From the NCBI GenBank assembly GCA_029861485.1, contig JAOTZF010000001.1:1-29599 (forward strand): a stretch of 29,599 nt of DNA. Direction: 5' to 3'. Numbering within the stretch: the first letter of the stretch is position 1; each line of letters opens with the position of its first letter. This stretch comes from Thermoleophilia bacterium (GTDB taxonomy: Bacteria; Actinomycetota; Thermoleophilia; Miltoncostaeales; Miltoncostaeaceae). Positions 88 through 8,144 of this stretch are shown here, one piece after another. The notes under the pieces are model-generated. The model worked only from the letters and a program-made list of their open reading frames with translations, did not search any database and had not been told where the DNA came from. The position numbers and the translations under genes were made by a program.

Positions 88-203
88 GTGGGATTGAAGT
101 TGAACCCACACCCCCTGTAAATCGGATTGTTCGACATTCTTCAAAGCCTGAGGCTTCCTCCAAGATAGGCCGACGCAAGGAAGTGGGACTCAAGTTGAAC
201 CCC
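88..203. repeat. 116-bp direct repeat, copy 1
   Basis: Manual alignment with 1517-1632 gives 113/116 identity, with mismatches only at 118/1547, 126/1555 and 146/1575. 60/116 GC (52%), lower than the surrounding genes. Begins with GTGGGATTGAAGTTGAACCCAC and ends with GTGGGACTCAAGTTGAACCCC. Confidence 0.97.
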
Positions 204-282
204 GTCAGGCTGGCGCGCGCCCAAATCGCCGGCTGAGGGTATGCCAGCCGGTGCACGAAATGGTTGGAGGCGTGGTCGCGGC

Positions 283-1263: not shown

Positions 1264-1516
1264 GGCACCTCTTCGCGTTGAGGCGCGGACGGCGCCGGTT
1301 CTCACGGATGTCAAGCAACGCTAGTCCGTGGTCTGACGCCGAGACGTCCCCGAAAGCCCCTGAAACGGTCTGCGGCAATGCCGCGCCGCGGGACGGCGGA
1401 GGTCACTCGCTCTATGGAGTGGAGCCTGTCCGCCTCAGACCTGCGAGCCCGGGAGCTGCTGCTATCGGATATCGCTAGGCGGTTGACGCGAGACCGCACC
1501 CGGAGTGAAACGGGCC

Positions 1517-1632
1517 GTGGGATTGAAGTTGAACCCACACCCCCTGCAAATCGGCTTGTTCGACATTCTTCAAAACCTGAGGCTTCCTCCAAGATAGGCC
1601 GACGCAAGGAAGTGGGACTCAAGTTGAACCCC
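1517..1632. repeat. 116-bp direct repeat, copy 2
   Basis: 113/116 identical to 88-203 at offset 1,429. Both copies are preceded by ACGGGCC(TA). Confidence 0.97.
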
Positions 1633-1776: not shown

Positions 1777-4137
1777 CTATTCGTAAGCAAGCGTGTCACG
1801 GATGGTGAGCTTGGCTGCGACCCGCGCGGGGCGGGTTGCGCCGAGCGCTCCGATGACAAGCGCAATGGGAATCCAGACGGCGATGCCGACCCACGAGAGG
1901 CTGGCCGGTAGCGACGCCGCGAGCAGACTGCTGCCGATCACCTCGCGCAACAAGAAGTCCACCACGAAGGAGAGGGCAATCCCGAGCACGCATCCGGCCG
2001 CAGCGATGGCGAGCCCTTGGAGTAGCAGCAAGCGCGTAACGGCCCAACCCGATGCGCCAAGTGTGCGGATCACCCCGACCTCACGGGTCTGTTCGATGAC
2101 TCCGAGAGTCATTGTGCCGGCCACTCCGATCGCGGCCACGATCGCCAGGATGGCTCCGACCGCCAGCAGGAGAACAACGACGAGAACGAAGAGATTGTTG
2201 ACCAAGTCCCGGCGATCAGAGTTGGTTTGGACCACGCCGACCGGAATCCCCGCGTCGCGAGCGGTCGCCTCAATGCGGTCGGCGACTGCAGCCTGATCGG
2301 CGCCCGGTGCGAGTCGCACGGCCAGGAAGTTCGTCTGCCCGACCTCGCCGAGCTCGGCCGCCAGATCCTCGGTTGGCACGTAGACGACAGGGCCGACCAG
2401 GGTGGTGGTCGAAACACCGACGATTCGCCACTCGCGGCGGGCCCCCTCGATGTCGAGTACCACCTGGTCACCGACGCCGACATCGGATTCCTCATCGGCG
2501 AAGTGAGAGTTGACCACGATTGGATGGTCGTCGGCCGCCTCGAACCACCTACCTTCAATCAGGGTTGGGTCGATTGACGGCGAGCCGGTCGGTGCCGCGA
2601 TGAGGCTGACATTCTCGTTCTCCGTCCCATCCGGACGGATGCGGAACGCCTGCTTTTCGAACCAGCCTTCGACTCCTTCGACCGCCTGATCCTTCTCCAG
2701 GACCGCAGCGGCCGTCTTGAGTTCGGTGGTTTCGGTGAGTGCGAGCTCGACGTCATATGACCAGTAGCCGGCAACGTCATCACCGAGGCGCGAGAGGGCT
2801 TGACCGGTGCTGAGAACGCCGACAAGAACAGCGCCGCTCACGGCGATGGTCAGCACGGTGAGTACAAGCCGGGAGCGGTTTCGCACGGCGTTTCGATAGG
2901 CAAGCACTGTCGGTCGGGCGAAGGGCAGGACGGCCCGTCCTCGGCGCGCGGGTGTGGTGATTCCCCGGTCGGAGATTGCCTCTTGGACTGTGACGCGCGA
3001 GGCCCGGCGGACCGAGAGGATCACCGCGGCGATGGGAAGCAGCGTGGCGATCACGATTTCAATCACGATGGTCGCCCACGGGATACCCAGCGGCTCGAGA
3101 TCGAAATTGGCCAGGTCGGCAATGAAGCCGGCGAGGAACCGACCGGTCAGCACTGAGAGCGGAATCGCCACGATGAGGGCGCCCAGGGATAAGAGCAGCA
3201 CGTAGGCGAGGTATTGAGTGGTCAGCTGTCCCGATGTGCCGCCGATTGCCTTCATCACTCCGACCTGGCGTCGCTGTTGCGCCAAAAGCGCGGACACCGT
3301 GTTGATCACCAGGGCGACGGCAATCACGAGCGCAAGCAGCGACAGCAGCCGCATGATGGAGACGACGGATGCTATGGCGTTGTTGGCCCGGTGCTCGCTC
3401 GGCTCTTGAATGGCGCTCGACTCGATAGCAACGTTGGCCGGTTCGAGCACGCCATCGCGAACCGCGGTGGTCATCCCGATCGCCTGATTGCGATCCAACG
3501 GATCATCGGAGGCTCGGATGTAGAGCGAGTTGAGGAGTCTCGAGCCTGTGAGCTTGGCCATCGTCGCCATCGACAGATAGGCGCGTGCCGGACCACCGAG
3601 TGTGGGTGTGACTTCGTAGACGTCAAAGGCGGTCCCGTTGACTGGTAGATCGACCGGCGTCTTGCCGGGCAGGTTGATTGAGACCGTGTCGCCGACCCCT
3701 GCGCCCAGTTCATCGACCGACGACCGTTCCACCACGATTGCGTCGTTTGTCGGGGGCCACGTGCCGGTAGCGGGCTCAATTTTCGCAACCCGGTTCTCCG
3801 CGAAGTCGTTCATCGCGACGAGCTCCACGTTGACCGAGTCGCCCTTTGCATTGGTGACGCGCGTTTCGAGAATGCGCCGCCCCTCGACCTCGCTGACCGT
3901 CGGGTGGGCCGCGACGTCGTCCACCAGTTCGCTCGAGAATGGCTCGGTTCGCAGCATCGCCGAGGGTGGGTTGGCACCCAGGAAGCTCGACTCGAACGAG
4001 GTCCCAATCGTGGCGCCAGCCAAGTACATGGCGCCAACCGCGAGCATTCCAACCGCGAGCGAAGCAATCGCCAAGATCGAGCGTGACTTGTTGAATACGA
4101 GGTCCGAGCGGACCTTGCGCCAGCGCGAGCCCATCAC
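1777..4137 (-). CDS. ABC transporter permease, FtsX/MacB-like (two FtsX-type domains)
   Basis: 786 aa, two TM bundles each followed by Q(RR/TR)xVGVxxxxG(G/A) signatures, large extracytoplasmic domains. 4-bp overlap with the upstream ATPase. Confidence 0.9.
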   Translation of the reverse strand: MMGSRWRKVRSDLVFNKSRSILAIASLAVGMLAVGAMYLAGATIGTSFESSFLGANPPSAMLRTEPFSSELVDDVAAHPTVSEVEGRRILETRVTNAKGDSVNVELVAMNDFAENRVAKIEPATGTWPPTNDAIVVERSSVDELGAGVGDTVSINLPGKTPVDLPVNGTAFDVYEVTPTLGGPARAYLSMATMAKLTGSRLLNSLYIRASDDPLDRNQAIGMTTAVRDGVLEPANVAIESSAIQEPSEHRANNAIASVVSIMRLLSLLALVIAVALVINTVSALLAQQRRQVGVMKAIGGTSGQLTTQYLAYVLLLSLGALIVAIPLSVLTGRFLAGFIADLANFDLEPLGIPWATIVIEIVIATLLPIAAVILSVRRASRVTVQEAISDRGITTPARRGRAVLPFARPTVLAYRNAVRNRSRLVLTVLTIAVSGAVLVGVLSTGQALSRLGDDVAGYWSYDVELALTETTELKTAAAVLEKDQAVEGVEGWFEKQAFRIRPDGTENENVSLIAAPTGSPSIDPTLIEGRWFEAADDHPIVVNSHFADEESDVGVGDQVVLDIEGARREWRIVGVSTTTLVGPVVYVPTEDLAAELGEVGQTNFLAVRLAPGADQAAVADRIEATARDAGIPVGVVQTNSDRRDLVNNLFVLVVVLLLAVGAILAIVAAIGVAGTMTLGVIEQTREVGVIRTLGASGWAVTRLLLLQGLAIAAAGCVLGIALSFVVDFLLREVIGSSLLAASLPASLSWVGIAVWIPIALVIGALGATRPARVAAKLTIRDTLAYE

Positions 4138-4877
4138 GCCACCCTCGCGCGTTCTGAGACAGCACCGTCTTTGACTTCGACGATCCGACGGGTGCGCTCG
4201 GCCAGCTCCCGGTCGTGTGTGACCATGAGGATGGTCCGATCGCTCTCGACCAGCTCATCGAAGAGATCCATCATCGTGGACGCAGACTCCGAATCGAGGT
4301 TTCCCGTCGGCTCGTCGCCCAGGATGATCGGAGGGTCGTTGGAGAGGGCGCGGGCGATCGCCGCGCGCTGTTGTTGACCGCCTGACACCTCAGAGGGCAA
4401 CTTCTCCGCCTGGTCTGCGAGTCCGACCCGATCCAGAAGCTCGCGCGCAAACTCAGGCCGCTGCCGCCGAGGGTGGACCCCACAGAAGTCCATCGGAAGC
4501 ATCACGTTCTCGGCCAGGCTCAGCGTGGGAAGCAACTGGAAGAACTGAAAGACGACACCGACGTTCTTGCCGCGCCACCGCGCGGTCTCGTTTTCGTTGA
4601 GCGCCGATACCTCGACGCCGTCCACGACGACCCGGCCCTCGGTGGGCCGGTCAATGCCTGCCATCAAGTTGAGTAGTGTCGATTTACCCGAGCCAGAGGG
4701 CCCGACCACTCCAACGAACTCGCCAGCGCCGACCAACAGATCCGCGCTCTTTAGCGCGGTGAAGCTGATGCCACCGGTCGTATAGGTCTTCGATACCCCG
4801 TCAAATCTGATCAGCCCGGAGGTGTCGTCGTCGTTGGATGGCGAAGAATCGTCCTGAGAATGTCGTCCAAACCGCAC
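4134..4877 (-). CDS. ABC transporter ATP-binding protein (LolD/MacB-like)
   Basis: Walker A GPSGSGKS, Q-loop VFQ, signature VSGGQQQR, Walker B ILGDEPTGNLD, H-loop VTHD. Start placed at GTG 4877, 8 nt after GGAGG. Confidence 0.92.
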   Translation of the reverse strand: MRFGRHSQDDSSPSNDDDTSGLIRFDGVSKTYTTGGISFTALKSADLLVGAGEFVGVVGPSGSGKSTLLNLMAGIDRPTEGRVVVDGVEVSALNENETARWRGKNVGVVFQFFQLLPTLSLAENVMLPMDFCGVHPRRQRPEFARELLDRVGLADQAEKLPSEVSGGQQQRAAIARALSNDPPIILGDEPTGNLDSESASTMMDLFDELVESDRTILMVTHDRELAERTRRIVEVKDGAVSERARVA

Positions 4878-5583
4878 CGTCTGCACCTCCGTTGTGGTCT
4901 CCCGAAGGCTCTTCGGGGATCGCCGCGTGGCACAGGATGCGTCGGTCCCCCAGGGCACGCATCCGTGGCAATCCACATGCAGTTCGGGCGCTACTGGAGC
5001 GGCCGGACCGGGTGGCAGGCCCGGCCGTGAGCGAGAAGATGGCGTTTGGCGCCACTGAAACGCCTGGAACGCGCCACATTAGGGCGAGCAGCGATGCCGA
5101 GAAGCGAGCCAAGAAACCCCTGCATGACCATCATCCGGACTCCGTAGTTATCCGCATGCGGGAATCCGCCCGTGCGTAGCGCGACAACAAGGACTCACGA
5201 GTCCAAGGCCAGGCTGCAGCCAGCCAGGGTTCGGTTTTCACTGGACTACCGGCACGGGCCTGTATGCACCCGAGCTCACTGACCCTCGCCGCCGGACGAC
5301 CGACAAGGTCGGCCTCACGCCTTCGGCGGCGGGTCGATCTACGGGTTAGCTAGCGCTCCAGTCGGTAGTCGTCGGTGCAACGGGGTCAGCGCGAGGCCGA
5401 GACGCCAAGTAATGGTGGCGCAACTCGTCATCCTGGTCGGCCTGGATGTTGCGGAGATCTTCCGCGTGTAGTCAGCAAGAGTCCGGAGCGGGCCGGGTTC
5501 GAAAGCGACTCATTTCTTCGTGCTCGGCCGCAGCGATACGAAGACACCGCGACCAGGGGAAAGCCCCGTTGTCCACAGGACGT

Positions 5584-5614
5584 ACGGGCTTAGTGGGAGT
5601 GAGGTCGAACCAAA
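5584..5614. repeat. Degenerate single copy of the repeat-boundary site
   Basis: ACGGGCTTAGTGGGAGTGAGGTCGAACC (5584-5611) matches ACGGGCCTAGTGGGATTGAAGTTGAACC (79-106) at 24/28, same orientation. The rest of the 116-bp unit is absent here. Confidence 0.7.
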
Positions 5615-5798
5615 CCCGTTATCTCGCGATGGCGAGGACGGGCAAGCGCGGACTCTCGCCATTGCCGGGAGTCGCCCGTTGTTATCGGGGTTTTCCCCGG
5701 ATGCCTCGTGCCGCGAACGACCCCGATGATCTGCGCTCGAACGCGCGTTACACACGCCCGGTATTGGCGCGCGGCGAGTTCCGGGAGGGGTACGAAAG

Positions 5799-6359
5799 AT
5801 GGAAGGCAAACCGACCCCAGACGACCCGTCGGACAACGAGGCTGACGCCAGCGCGAACCGTCGCTGGCCGACATGGAGACGGCTCCTGTTCATCGTCGGG
5901 GCCATCGTGGTCGGGTTGCTCGTCCTCATCCAGGCGGTGCCCTACGGACGCGATCACACCAATCCCCCAGTGACGGCCACGACAACCTGGGACAGCCCGC
6001 AGACCCAGTCACTCTTTGCGACAGCGTGTGGCGACTGCCATTCCAACGAGACCGAGTGGCCGTGGTACTCCAACATCGCGCCGGTCTCCTGGCTGACCGA
6101 AAAAGACGTCAAGGACGGTCGCGAGGAGCTGAACACCTCGGAGGCGCAGTCCGAGGTTGAAGTCGAGGAGATGGTTGAGGTGATCCGCGACGGGAGTATG
6201 CCGCCGTGGTTCTACACCATTCCCCACCCCGACGCCGACCTCTCTTCTCGAGAGAAAGAGGCCCTCATCACGGGGCTTGAGGCCACCTTCCTCGGTAGGG
6301 AGACCACTGACCCACGAGGTGAGGAGGCGGAGTCTGAGGACGAGCAGGACGAATCCTGA
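5799..6359 (+). CDS. Membrane-anchored c-type heme-binding protein (Haem_bd-like)
   Basis: GGAGGGG RBS; N-terminal TM helix; CGDCH (CxxCH) followed by SNETEWPWYSNIAPVSWL; distal MPP motif. Confidence 0.85.
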   Translation: MEGKPTPDDPSDNEADASANRRWPTWRRLLFIVGAIVVGLLVLIQAVPYGRDHTNPPVTATTTWDSPQTQSLFATACGDCHSNETEWPWYSNIAPVSWLTEKDVKDGREELNTSEAQSEVEVEEMVEVIRDGSMPPWFYTIPHPDADLSSREKEALITGLEATFLGRETTDPRGEEAESEDEQDES

Positions 6360-6462
6360 GCATCCGGTCCAGCGAGTACTCCTCGTGTGACCCGTTCGAG
6401 CAGACCTAGCTGAACCGGCCTGGGGGTGATGGAGGCTTCTGACCGCTGAGAGGATGGAAGCC

Positions 6463-6780
6463 ATGAGCAAGAGGTATCCCCCGGAGATGAAGGAGCGCGC
6501 CTGTCGCCTGGTGGCCGACTGGCGACGTGAGCGACAACGATCAAACGGCGGCTTCAACGAGGTCGCGGCGCAGCTTGATGTCCACCCCGAGTCTCTACGC
6601 GGCTGGTTTCGCCAGTGGCAGATCGACGCCGGTGAGCAACCGGGCATCACGACGGAGGAGCAGAAGCGGATCACCGAGCTGGAGAGGGAGGTCCGAGAAC
6701 TCCGACGAGCCAACGAGATCCTCCGGTCTGCCTCGGCTTTTTTCGCGGCGGAGCTCGACCGCCCACGAAACTCGTCGTGA
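6463..6780 (+). CDS. IS3-family transposase OrfA (HTH)
   Basis: SKRYPPEMKERA...VAAQLDVHPESLRGW...ELRRANEILRSASAFFAAELDR, typical IS3 OrfA. Alternative ATG at 6454. Confidence 0.92.
   Translation: MSKRYPPEMKERACRLVADWRRERQRSNGGFNEVAAQLDVHPESLRGWFRQWQIDAGEQPGITTEEQKRITELEREVRELRRANEILRSASAFFAAELDRPRNSS
6738..6744 (+). promoter_or_regulatory. Putative -1 ribosomal frameshift site (T TTT TTC) joining OrfA and OrfB
   Basis: GCTTTTTTCGCG near the end of orfA, the usual position in IS3-family elements. Confidence 0.65.
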
Positions 6781-7685
6781 GCTACATCGACCAGCACAAG
6801 GACCAGTTCGGGGTCGAGCCCATCTGCGGCGCTTTGCAGGTGGTCTCATCGACCTACTACGCCGCCCGCTCGCGTCCGCCCTCTGCGCGCCAGCGCGAGG
6901 ATCAACGACTCAGTGCTGAGGTGATGCGCGTGTTCGAGAGCAACTACCGGGTGTACGGCAGGCGCAAGATCTGGGCTCAGCTCAACCGCGAAGGCATCCC
7001 GGTCGGGCGCGACCGGGTGGAGCGCCTGATGAAGCAGGCAGGCATCGCGGGAGCAGTCCGAGGAAAGAGAGTCAGAACGACCCGTCCGGACGAGCGCGCT
7101 CCACGTGCGCCTGATCTGGTCGATCGCGATTGGGCGGTATCTGCGCCCAATCGCGTCTGGGTCTCGGACTTCACGTACGTGGCCACCTGGTCGGGCATGG
7201 CGTATGTGGCGTTCGTGATCGATGTCTACTCACGACGGATCGTGGGGTGGCGGGTCGCCTCATCGATGCGCACCGCACTCGTGCTCGATGCGCTCGAGCA
7301 GGCAATCTGGGCGCGTGATGAGCGCCTCGAGGGCCTGATCGTTCACACCGACGCCGGCAGTCAATTCACGGCCATTCGTTTCACCGAGCGCCTGGCTGAG
7401 GTCGGTGCGGCACCATCGGTGGGATCGGTCGGCGATCCGATCGACAACGCGATCGCCGAATCGACCATCGGGCTCTACAAGAGCGAGCTGATCCGACGGC
7501 GCGGGCCCTGGCGCACCCTCGATGAGCTGGAGTTCGCCACCTTCGAGTACGTCGACTGGTTCAACCATCGTCGCCTGCACGGCGAGATCCGCCAGCGACC
7601 ACCTGCCGAGGTCGAAGACCTCTACTACCGTCAACGACCCGCCCCGATGGAGGGGCTCAACTCAGAAGAAATCGGTCTCCACTAA
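6777..7685 (+). CDS. IS3-family transposase OrfB (DDE integrase core)
   Basis: WVSDFTYV, HTDAGSQF, DNAIAES...KSE DDE triad; YVDWFNHRRLH C-terminus. Stop lies within the IRR. Confidence 0.95.
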   Translation: MSYIDQHKDQFGVEPICGALQVVSSTYYAARSRPPSARQREDQRLSAEVMRVFESNYRVYGRRKIWAQLNREGIPVGRDRVERLMKQAGIAGAVRGKRVRTTRPDERAPRAPDLVDRDWAVSAPNRVWVSDFTYVATWSGMAYVAFVIDVYSRRIVGWRVASSMRTALVLDALEQAIWARDERLEGLIVHTDAGSQFTAIRFTERLAEVGAAPSVGSVGDPIDNAIAESTIGLYKSELIRRRGPWRTLDELEFATFEYVDWFNHRRLHGEIRQRPPAEVEDLYYRQRPAPMEGLNSEEIGLH

Positions 7686-8041
7686 GCCCAGGCCGGTTCA
7701 TTTTGCTGGAGGACCCCTCAACCGTGATCCAAACGGGGCCGACCGGCAGATGGACTCCACCTCAACGCCACCCCCTCTGTCAATCACTGGTGGACCTGAC
7801 CCCCTCTCACGGACACCTGCTGACCGGAGAGAACCCGGCACGAAAGGGGCCCCCACGGCCCACGACTGCAACGCTGCTGATCTCGATGCCGTGATCGCCG
7901 CGCGACTGACGGGTGCGCCATCGGCTCGACGGCGAGTGGTTGATCGAACACGATCGCGGCTGTCCTGGCCCTGTCGAACACGCAGCGACAGCCGGGCCAC
8001 AGAGCCGAGGCCGCCTTTGCCACGCGTCGCGGAGGCAACCA

Positions 8042-8067: not shown

Positions 8068-8070
8068 TAG

Positions 8071-8144
8071 TCGGGGCGGCAGGATTTGAACCTGCGACCT
8101 TCCGGCCCCCAGCCGGATGCGCTACCAGGCTGCGCCACGCCCCG
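8071..8144 (-). tRNA. tRNA-Pro(GGG), CCA not encoded
   Basis: CGGGGCG/CGCCCCG acceptor stem, GCGC D-stem, TCCGG-CTGGGGG-CCGGA anticodon arm, GCAGG-TTCAAAT-CCTGC T-arm, discriminator A followed by CTA. Confidence 0.97.

Follow-up and report, generated by a model that had tools for sequence, protein, structure and literature searches.

A tRNA-Ser-like two-box repeat at gene cassette junctions in Thermoleophilia points to an attachment system of a large serine recombinase

Introduction

SCCmec-type composite islands, which use the serine recombinases CcrAB or CcrC, occupy the 3' end of rlmH, and the repeats of the Dehalococcoides islands derive from the 3' end of ssrA itself. Canonical large serine integrases, to our knowledge, need no accessory site and do not recombine attP with attL, and we know of no accessory sites for the large serine recombinase class. 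From such textbook behaviour, neither tandem arrays nor a second box of the kind described below (site B) would be predicted. In large serine integrases, the ZD (zinc-ribbon) motif of attB lies 5 bp inward relative to that of attP (PMC3783163).

This study concerns a 124-bp repeat in the genome of a Thermoleophilia bacterium. On balance, we read it as the terminal arm of a mobile gene cassette, belonging to an attachment system whose enzyme is most likely a large serine recombinase acting in trans.

Results

Layout of the window

The window is the whole stretch of 29,599 nucleotides that was analysed, from contig C217 of a genome (G000) of 1.66 Mb, 67% completeness and 68.6% G+C. The original prediction had placed two similar boxes in it, site A (88-109) and site B (183-204); their twins lie at 1517-1538 and 1612-1633, and all four are on the plus strand. 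The coordinates, the sequences and the spacing of 95 bp were confirmed, the second site B by both a box search and a matrix scan. When the window was searched for the shared 18-nt box GGGAYTSAAGTTGAACCC with up to two mismatches, four occurrences were found against 0.01 expected, and none of 100 shuffles reached four. The two repeat copies, compared over 88-203 and 1517-1632, are identical at 113 of 116 positions. The mismatches, at 118, 126 and 146, all fall within the 72-nt interior, as had been reported; the chance probability of this is about 0.24, which makes the pattern uninformative by itself. The true start of the repeat is at position 80, giving extents of 80-203 and 1511-1632 and a length of 124 nt over which the copies are 97% identical, with a 2-nt indel between them at 86-87, directly left of site A.

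The repeat flanks a single minus-strand gene (283-1263), whose Pfam domains (ADH_zinc_N_2 and ADH_N) assign it to the zinc-type alcohol dehydrogenases or quinone oxidoreductases. Left of the first copy, positions 46-79 of the plus strand hold the T2 module, in which the 3' end of a large serine recombinase gene survives as a remnant; the module is part of the left-hand neighbouring unit. A degenerate T2-like module, recognised by flank alignment (1478-1510, plus strand), forms the far end of the dehydrogenase cassette and is followed by the junction (1511-1516) and site A of copy 2. The next cassette carries, on the minus strand, a MacB-type permease (1777-4137) and an ABC ATPase (4134-4976), both assigned by Pfam. 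Further on, a T1 module (5547-5583) is followed by a third, degenerate site A of short form, without a site B (5584-5625, plus strand), which was recognised by its covariance model score.

An IS3-family element (orfA/orfB, rve domain) occupies 6411-7700, about 24 nt from the place of a site A in the sister genome G001. Through this element, metagenome contig L095 matches the window at 100% identity and then enters a site A, whereas the window continues to tRNA-Pro. The link between the array and tRNA-Pro (8070-8144) runs through the IS3 element, and its junction there may be an IS-mediated rearrangement or an assembly misjoin.

Distribution and conservation of the repeat

An exact 18-mer scan over 185,579 species genomes found true copies with conserved flanks in Thermoleophilia genomes only, apart from one bin labelled Gemmatimonadota; the remaining matches lay within coding DNA and lacked the flanks. 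With a sequence model, site A and its flanks were found in 26 of the 111 genomes of the family, mostly in one to six copies per genome, with eight in G000 and 15 in G001; the genomes of the host genus, including G000, are fragmented. Copies within an array share their orientation and lie 0.4-4 kb apart. Their cargo is varied and metabolic, comprising dehydrogenases, GMC oxidoreductases, hydrolases, transporters, a P-type ATPase and a haem-binding protein, and no recombinase was found among the sampled genes between sites.

With regard to the boxes themselves, the original prediction described them as two tyrosine-recombinase cores, each with inverted 7-bp arms around an 8-bp overlap in which exchange would take place, and with an accessory palindrome between them. 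Among 61 distinct family copies, the supposed spacer is the most conserved part (95%), and the arms reach up to 85%. The arms of the window copy are indeed complementary at six of seven positions, but this degree of inversion is kept in only 13 of the 61 copies, and of the two outermost arm positions, one pairs in 13 copies and the other in 33. The central palindrome (144-156) is likewise perfect in copy 1, and only there; it is retained only in the subfamily of the window and not in other family members, which speaks against an accessory-protein box. In an alignment of 14 long forms from G000, G001 and sediment metagenome contigs, the interior was found to diverge strongly, by about 50%, without indels. 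The comparison that the prediction had proposed, between arms and spacers on the one hand and the interior on the other, showed both boxes to be far more constrained than the sequence between them, and neither conservation nor covariation was spread over the interior.

Position of the junction

Every homology breakpoint that was mapped lies about 8 bp left of site A (approximately 80-87), and none falls in the 8-bp spacer, which is a second argument against tyrosine-recombinase cores. In copy 1, this likely crossover region (80-87) carries CGG at 80-82. Homology to contig C243 of G001 (98%) begins at window position 1511, and homology to a metagenome contig with the same dehydrogenase begins at 79. 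Homology to G001:C105 begins exactly at 5584, at the third, degenerate site; unique variants in the left arm of this site are common to both genomes, yet the left neighbours differ between the window and G001:C105. An SDR cassette is 98.5% alike in L102 and L067, and the similarity stops at the left edge of the next site. The proposal that the boxes are recombination boundaries of a gene cassette is supported.

The same junction is found at the ends of tRNA genes. In G008, the order is tRNA-Ser, cassette, site and a flank designated D. The same tRNA, cassette and site are present in G100, where they are followed by 2.9 kb (X) ending in a tRNA-Ser 3' fragment, and then by D. At the border with D, the site in G008 and the tRNA fragment in G100 therefore end within 1 nt of each other. 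In G000:C72, the T2 module directly adjoins tRNA-Ser(gga) at its 3' end; in G001:C182 and L096 it adjoins site A, and the DNA upstream of T2 is also common to the tRNA-Ser(gga) locus and the site A loci. The start module T1 lies behind tRNA-Ser in G030 and behind the site in G000 and G001.

Near-identical modules are carried by unrelated cargo, as in the dehydrogenase and MacB cassettes or in L022 and L095, and related cargo is found with differing modules, the break then lying at the right edge of site B. Modules shared by unrelated cargo require a second breakpoint at site B, or gene conversion. In another account, no dedicated recombinase would be involved: the modules would be portable homology that allows RecA-dependent homologous integration of circular or linear DNA with a similar module, and gene conversion would homogenise neighbours. 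Such an account would fit the 97% identity of the window copies over 124 nt, the location of breaks at the limits of shared sequence, and the lack of a recombinase gene linked to the arrays of G000 or G001. It is nevertheless improbable, since the junction is precise to 1 nt relative to tRNA ends that share little sequence with the site, orientation is strict, and integrase genes or remnants adjoin the site. Moreover, the neighbouring modules in G001:C182 differ strongly from each other.

Two small rearrangements were observed near sites. In L096, 18 nt of the right flank of site A are tandemly duplicated, from oriented position 277 onward. A 46-nt stretch is present in one and absent from the other of two otherwise identical metagenome contigs (L101 at 3202, L102 at 6018-6065), about 112 nt from site A; it was considered as a box-linked event and set aside as unrelated to the boxes.

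Resemblance of site A to the end of tRNA-Ser

The conserved half-site spans 80-117. The reverse complement of site A resembles the T-arm of tRNA-Ser, together with the 7-nt 3' strand of the acceptor and the discriminator base. The equivalent of the T-loop comprises 12 nt rather than 7, corresponding to a 5-nt insertion. In other genera, the site is located 1-3.5 kb behind tRNA-Ser, in the sense of the tRNA; an intact tRNA-Ser is present at 8 of 15 loci, and partial tRNA-Ser-like fragments at two further loci (L071 and L075). Among the tRNAs of G000, none was found with a 3' end equal to the site. Site A was also considered as a tRNA-derived att repeat, that is, a copy of the 3' part of a tRNA, and this was rejected on account of the five extra T-loop nucleotides and of an acceptor-like strand unlike that of tRNA-Ser.

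When site A and the tRNA-Ser T-arm are compared at equivalent junctions, the distal motif of site A lies 5 bp farther from the junction. Read with the attB/attP rule of large serine integrases (PMC3783163), this shift in register suggests that site A is an attP-type half-site, for which the tRNA-Ser end would be the attB-type counterpart.

Other arrangements around tRNA-Ser genes were also noted. In G028, each of two divergent tRNA-Ser genes is flanked by site arrays, and two complete sites with acceptor-like flanks (L081 5017 and 5123, in G028:C2) lie 106 bp apart. Classical partial tRNA-Ser 3' fragments, extending from the anticodon loop to the 3' end, occur in L084 (7159-7239; G100) and L071 (3261-3314; G025), from which it appears that ordinary tRNA-targeting islands share these hot spots with the cassette arrays.

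A probable coding tail across the junction

In L015, the frame of the tail follows on unbroken from the integrase remnant, and protein P0007 shows the same continuity. Translated in this frame, the flank with site A and the codons after it give G-L-V-G-L-K-L-N-P-(H/N)-P-x-Q-x-x-L-F, in which a Leu codon has its third position at the variable base to the left of site A. Within the interior motif Q-x-x-L-F, five codons are used for the Leu that precedes Phe, and the Phe and Asp codons also vary synonymously. For the flank and the box, pN/pS is 0.36 in the integrase frame against 0.63 and 1.12; over the whole stretch it is 0.61 against 0.65 in the next frame, so that the coding signal is moderate.

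Peptide alignment and frame continuity place the tail remnant of copy 1 at 88-168 on the plus strand. Here, the T at 118 creates a premature TAA (118-120), and the frame stops at TAG 166-168. In copy 2 (1517-1597, plus strand), the frame is open up to TAG 1595-1597. The TGTTCGACA motif (codons L-F-D) and the palindrome at 144-156 (codons S-L-R-L) both lie inside the tail. To judge from these patterns of substitution, a coding role best accounts for the conserved first stretch of the interior, and the tail may be translated.

Candidate recombinases

Only one genome of the family, G092, has a full large serine recombinase gene and the site on the same stretch, and such genes are rare in the family. 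The 679-codon frame (L105 8213-10249), with Resolvase, Recombinase and Zn_ribbon_recom domains, immediately follows tRNA-Ser(cga) and is oriented toward it. It is accompanied by conjugation-type genes, namely an M78 peptidase and a conjugative coupling protein after the integrase, and site A is found 16.3 kb from the tRNA in the expected orientation. This autonomous element has site A only, which means that site B is not required there.

The remnants point to the same class of enzyme. In G001:C243, the orthologue of window copy 2, a C-terminal integrase remnant lies immediately left of site A (51% identity to the G092 integrase, E 5e-23), and its decayed frame continues across site A and on into the beginning of the interior. 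Within the T2 module of the window, the segment designated box 0 (46-64) corresponds to codons G-S-N-V near the integrase C-terminus. A word-indexed protein search returned no full-length relatives of the integrase remnant; an exhaustive search recovered them, and the products of this integrase family cross the junction, most of them into tRNA antisense and one (P0007) into site A. Since the frames cross the junction, the C-terminal tail changes with the integration state. Frames of large serine recombinases that extend past the junction into the antisense of the neighbouring tRNA were seen in G092, in L106 (1075-2925; G011) and in proteins P0002-P0004 and P0010. No intact large serine recombinase was found in G001 or in G000 as far as the latter is assembled (67% complete). 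Site A is most likely served by a large serine recombinase, an assignment made through relatives and remnants of the enzyme.

Box 0 is also present about 100 nt upstream of site A wherever T1 intervenes, at 5495-5513 in the window and at 3918 and 391 (minus strand) in G000:C226. On this evidence, T1 appears to have been inserted between box 0 and the junction.

Two other enzymes were considered. A tyrosine integrase adjoins one family copy in G092, which, together with the complementary arms of the window copy, would speak for the tyrosine-recombinase cores. The family of this integrase is scattered, however, and is not co-located with the site in any other genome, and no tyrosine recombinase (PF00589) was found on the site-bearing contigs of G000 or G001. 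Given also the arms, the breakpoints outside the spacer and the palindrome discussed above, exchange between tyrosine-recombinase cores is largely refuted. The other candidate is a serine recombinase of 207 aa (G000:C34:5026-5649; L104 1027-1647) that combines a Resolvase domain with half a Recombinase domain. Its gene is single-copy, with about 55-60% conservation over many genera of the family; 63 of 111 genomes have it, and its presence follows phylogeny. It was rejected as the enzyme of the site since it is unlinked, lying on another contig, and is missing from the site-bearing genomes G011 and G021 (96-97% complete). For the same reasons the repeat was not considered a resolvase res site. 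Several matches to orthologues of this protein contain a stop codon inside the scored stretch, which is likely the end of the open reading frame.

Interior of the repeat

As the unit lies downstream of same-sense genes in most cassettes, and as a minus-strand fold of the window copies can pair site B with site A, it could be a structured RNA transcribed with the cargo, such as a small RNA, a terminator or a 3'-UTR stabiliser. The single-sequence folds are no better than those of shuffled sequences, with z-scores of only -0.5 and -1.0. Across the 14 long forms, the covariation term of the consensus fold is -0.08, and the structure pairing B with A shows no excess covariation, its score being reached by 151 of 500 shuffles. 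Rfam, run on the window start and six related loci, gave no match at the unit, and no promoter or terminator was matched in the unit. A functional RNA is accordingly very unlikely. CRISPR-repeat, promoter, iteron or DnaA-box and terminator functions were also dropped, as promoter and terminator matches were lacking and the DnaA-box-like T1 module is variable.

The interior was also compared with the cassette-start modules, and the similarity was not significant (p 0.09-0.78). The original prediction had offered as an alternative a 95-bp non-autonomous mini-element, for which empty and filled alleles differing by 95 bp would be expected. None was found among the loci compared, and the idea is further weakened as the interior has no recognisable cassette-start module and site B never occurs alone. 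A MITE-like element was discarded in addition for its lack of inverted termini.

The second box

A matrix scan around the 61 sites found a second box in direct orientation only, at offsets of +94 (4 cases), +95 (9) and +97 (1), the G028 pair of full sites 106 bp apart being an additional case; no inverted second box was found within 220 nt of a site. Site B is restricted to the host genus, where it is present in 14 elements and never without site A. It lacks the conserved, junction-type left flank and has a purine-rich flank instead. Its conservation is below that of site A and far above that of the interior. Read in its own frame, which is offset by 2 nt, site B encodes the same peptide as site A, with the Leu codons TTG, CTC, CTA and CTG, which identifies it as a paralogue of site A. 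The break between modules and cargo at its right edge implies that exchange or conversion also occurs there. A simple site of about 50 bp without accessory sites does not describe the host genus, which has the box at +94 to +97, and fits the short forms found elsewhere.

Site B could be a former cassette end, with the 95 bp from the interior through site A representing what is left of a docked empty cassette or of a tandem duplication; site B would then have no present function, and its spacing would be constant by descent. The shared peptide with its synonymous Leu codons agrees with such an origin, as do the A-like right flank retained by some copies, a left flank that resembles the tRNA-Ser acceptor strand, the re-assortment of modules against cargo at the right edge of site B, and the G028 pair, according to which tiny units exist. 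Against it, site B lacks the junction-type left flank and never occurs alone, the interior does not resemble cassette-start modules, and no 95-bp presence/absence pair was found among the loci compared. In addition, the box and its spacing of 94-97 bp have outlasted about 50% divergence of the interior, which argues for selection. We consider the relic a minor possibility, albeit one to be taken seriously.

Site B may instead bind the same protein, or a partner of it, as a secondary site. Between a dead relic and a linked second box that is probably bound, we prefer the latter, although not strongly. The stronger proposition, that the long form is a working bipartite arm in which the recombinase or its partner must occupy a box exactly nine helical turns away from the crossover-proximal one, is put forward tentatively and is rather doubtful. 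In two genomes of genus g25, a weaker second box was seen about 31 nt after site A (L077 4423-4471 and L084 5016-5065), which may represent a different accessory arrangement.

Discussion

The proposed mechanism can be outlined as follows. Site A with its left flank would act as an attP-type half-site, the other strand of which imitates the T-arm and acceptor of tRNA-Ser with the distal motif out by 5 bp. Strand exchange would take place to the left of site A, at approximately 80-87, which is equivalent to the point where a tRNA gene has its 3' end; cassettes would consequently stack in one orientation behind tRNA genes or behind earlier cassettes. In autonomous elements, the recombinase frame would cross the junction and take its last codons from site A and from some 30-80 nt after it, and the window would retain only decayed remnants of this frame. 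Site B would be a diverged copy of the box, located 94-97 bp (about nine helical turns) inside the cassette, and modules could be swapped between cassettes at the two boxes.

If this mechanism is correct, an uncultured actinobacterial lineage possesses an integron-like cassette system that is based on a different class of enzyme, in which the end of a cassette imitates the end of a tRNA gene and each inserted unit becomes the next docking point. Given the metabolic cargo, which includes dehydrogenases, oxidoreductases, transporters and hydrolases, the arrays could be a route of niche adaptation. The tRNA mimic with its 5-bp shift would provide a natural pair of sites with which to study how serine integrases tell attP from attB, and the fixed second box would be a testable exception to the rule that large serine integrases use simple sites. 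Should the bipartite arm also prove correct, this would be an integron-like platform on which recombinase-less, tRNA-mimicking cassettes are captured, ordered and exchanged behind tRNA genes.

Several described systems share part of these features. SCCmec-type islands also form tandem stacks at the 3' end of one conserved gene, and many of their units lack a recombinase and rely on an enzyme in trans. The repeats that separate them are short copies of the target, with neither a tRNA mimic nor a two-box arm, and the host phylum is a different one. The attC sites of integrons are likewise end modules of promoter-poor cassettes, with two conserved boxes around a variable stretch of near-fixed length, and integrons have a recombinase in trans and arrays in one orientation. 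In contrast, the boxes of attC are inverted and are recognised as a folded single strand by the tyrosine recombinase IntI, whereas those described here are direct, without an inverted copy or a conserved hairpin. Membership of the attC group was rejected on these grounds, namely direct repeats, no inverted copy within 220 nt and no covarying stem. The res sites of small serine resolvases resemble the repeat in their length (about 90-120 bp) and in containing several similar recombinase sites, and direct copies lead to deletion; res lies beside the resolvase gene, whereas the only small serine recombinase here, of 207 aa, is unlinked.

In tycheposons and other tRNA-targeting islands, repeated integration at a tRNA gene pushes cargo into islands with degenerate remnants in between (10.1101/2020.12.28.424599), as in the present arrays. 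Unlike the cassettes, they are flanked by partial tRNA copies and carry their own integrase, mostly a tyrosine recombinase. The ssrA islands of Dehalococcoides are mobilised site-specifically at a single tmRNA gene (PMC3146451), and they lie in tandem, have direct repeats and are associated with a serine recombinase. The repeat described here differs in being a distinct mimic, with a 5-nt insertion and a different acceptor-like strand.

The att sites of the large serine integrases LI/A118, Bxb1 and phiC31 are similar in that a half-site measures about 25-30 bp, strands are exchanged at a central dinucleotide that is not part of the recognition boxes, and the distal motif of attP lies 5 bp farther out than that of attB (PMC3783163). 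They also have the integrase gene next to the site, as G092 and the remnant in G001:C243 suggest for the present system. By comparison, the present system has a second box 95 bp inside the element and many recombinase-less units in arrays. Its site imitates a tRNA end rather than merely sharing a dinucleotide with the target, and it is crossed by the integrase frame of a putative enzyme.
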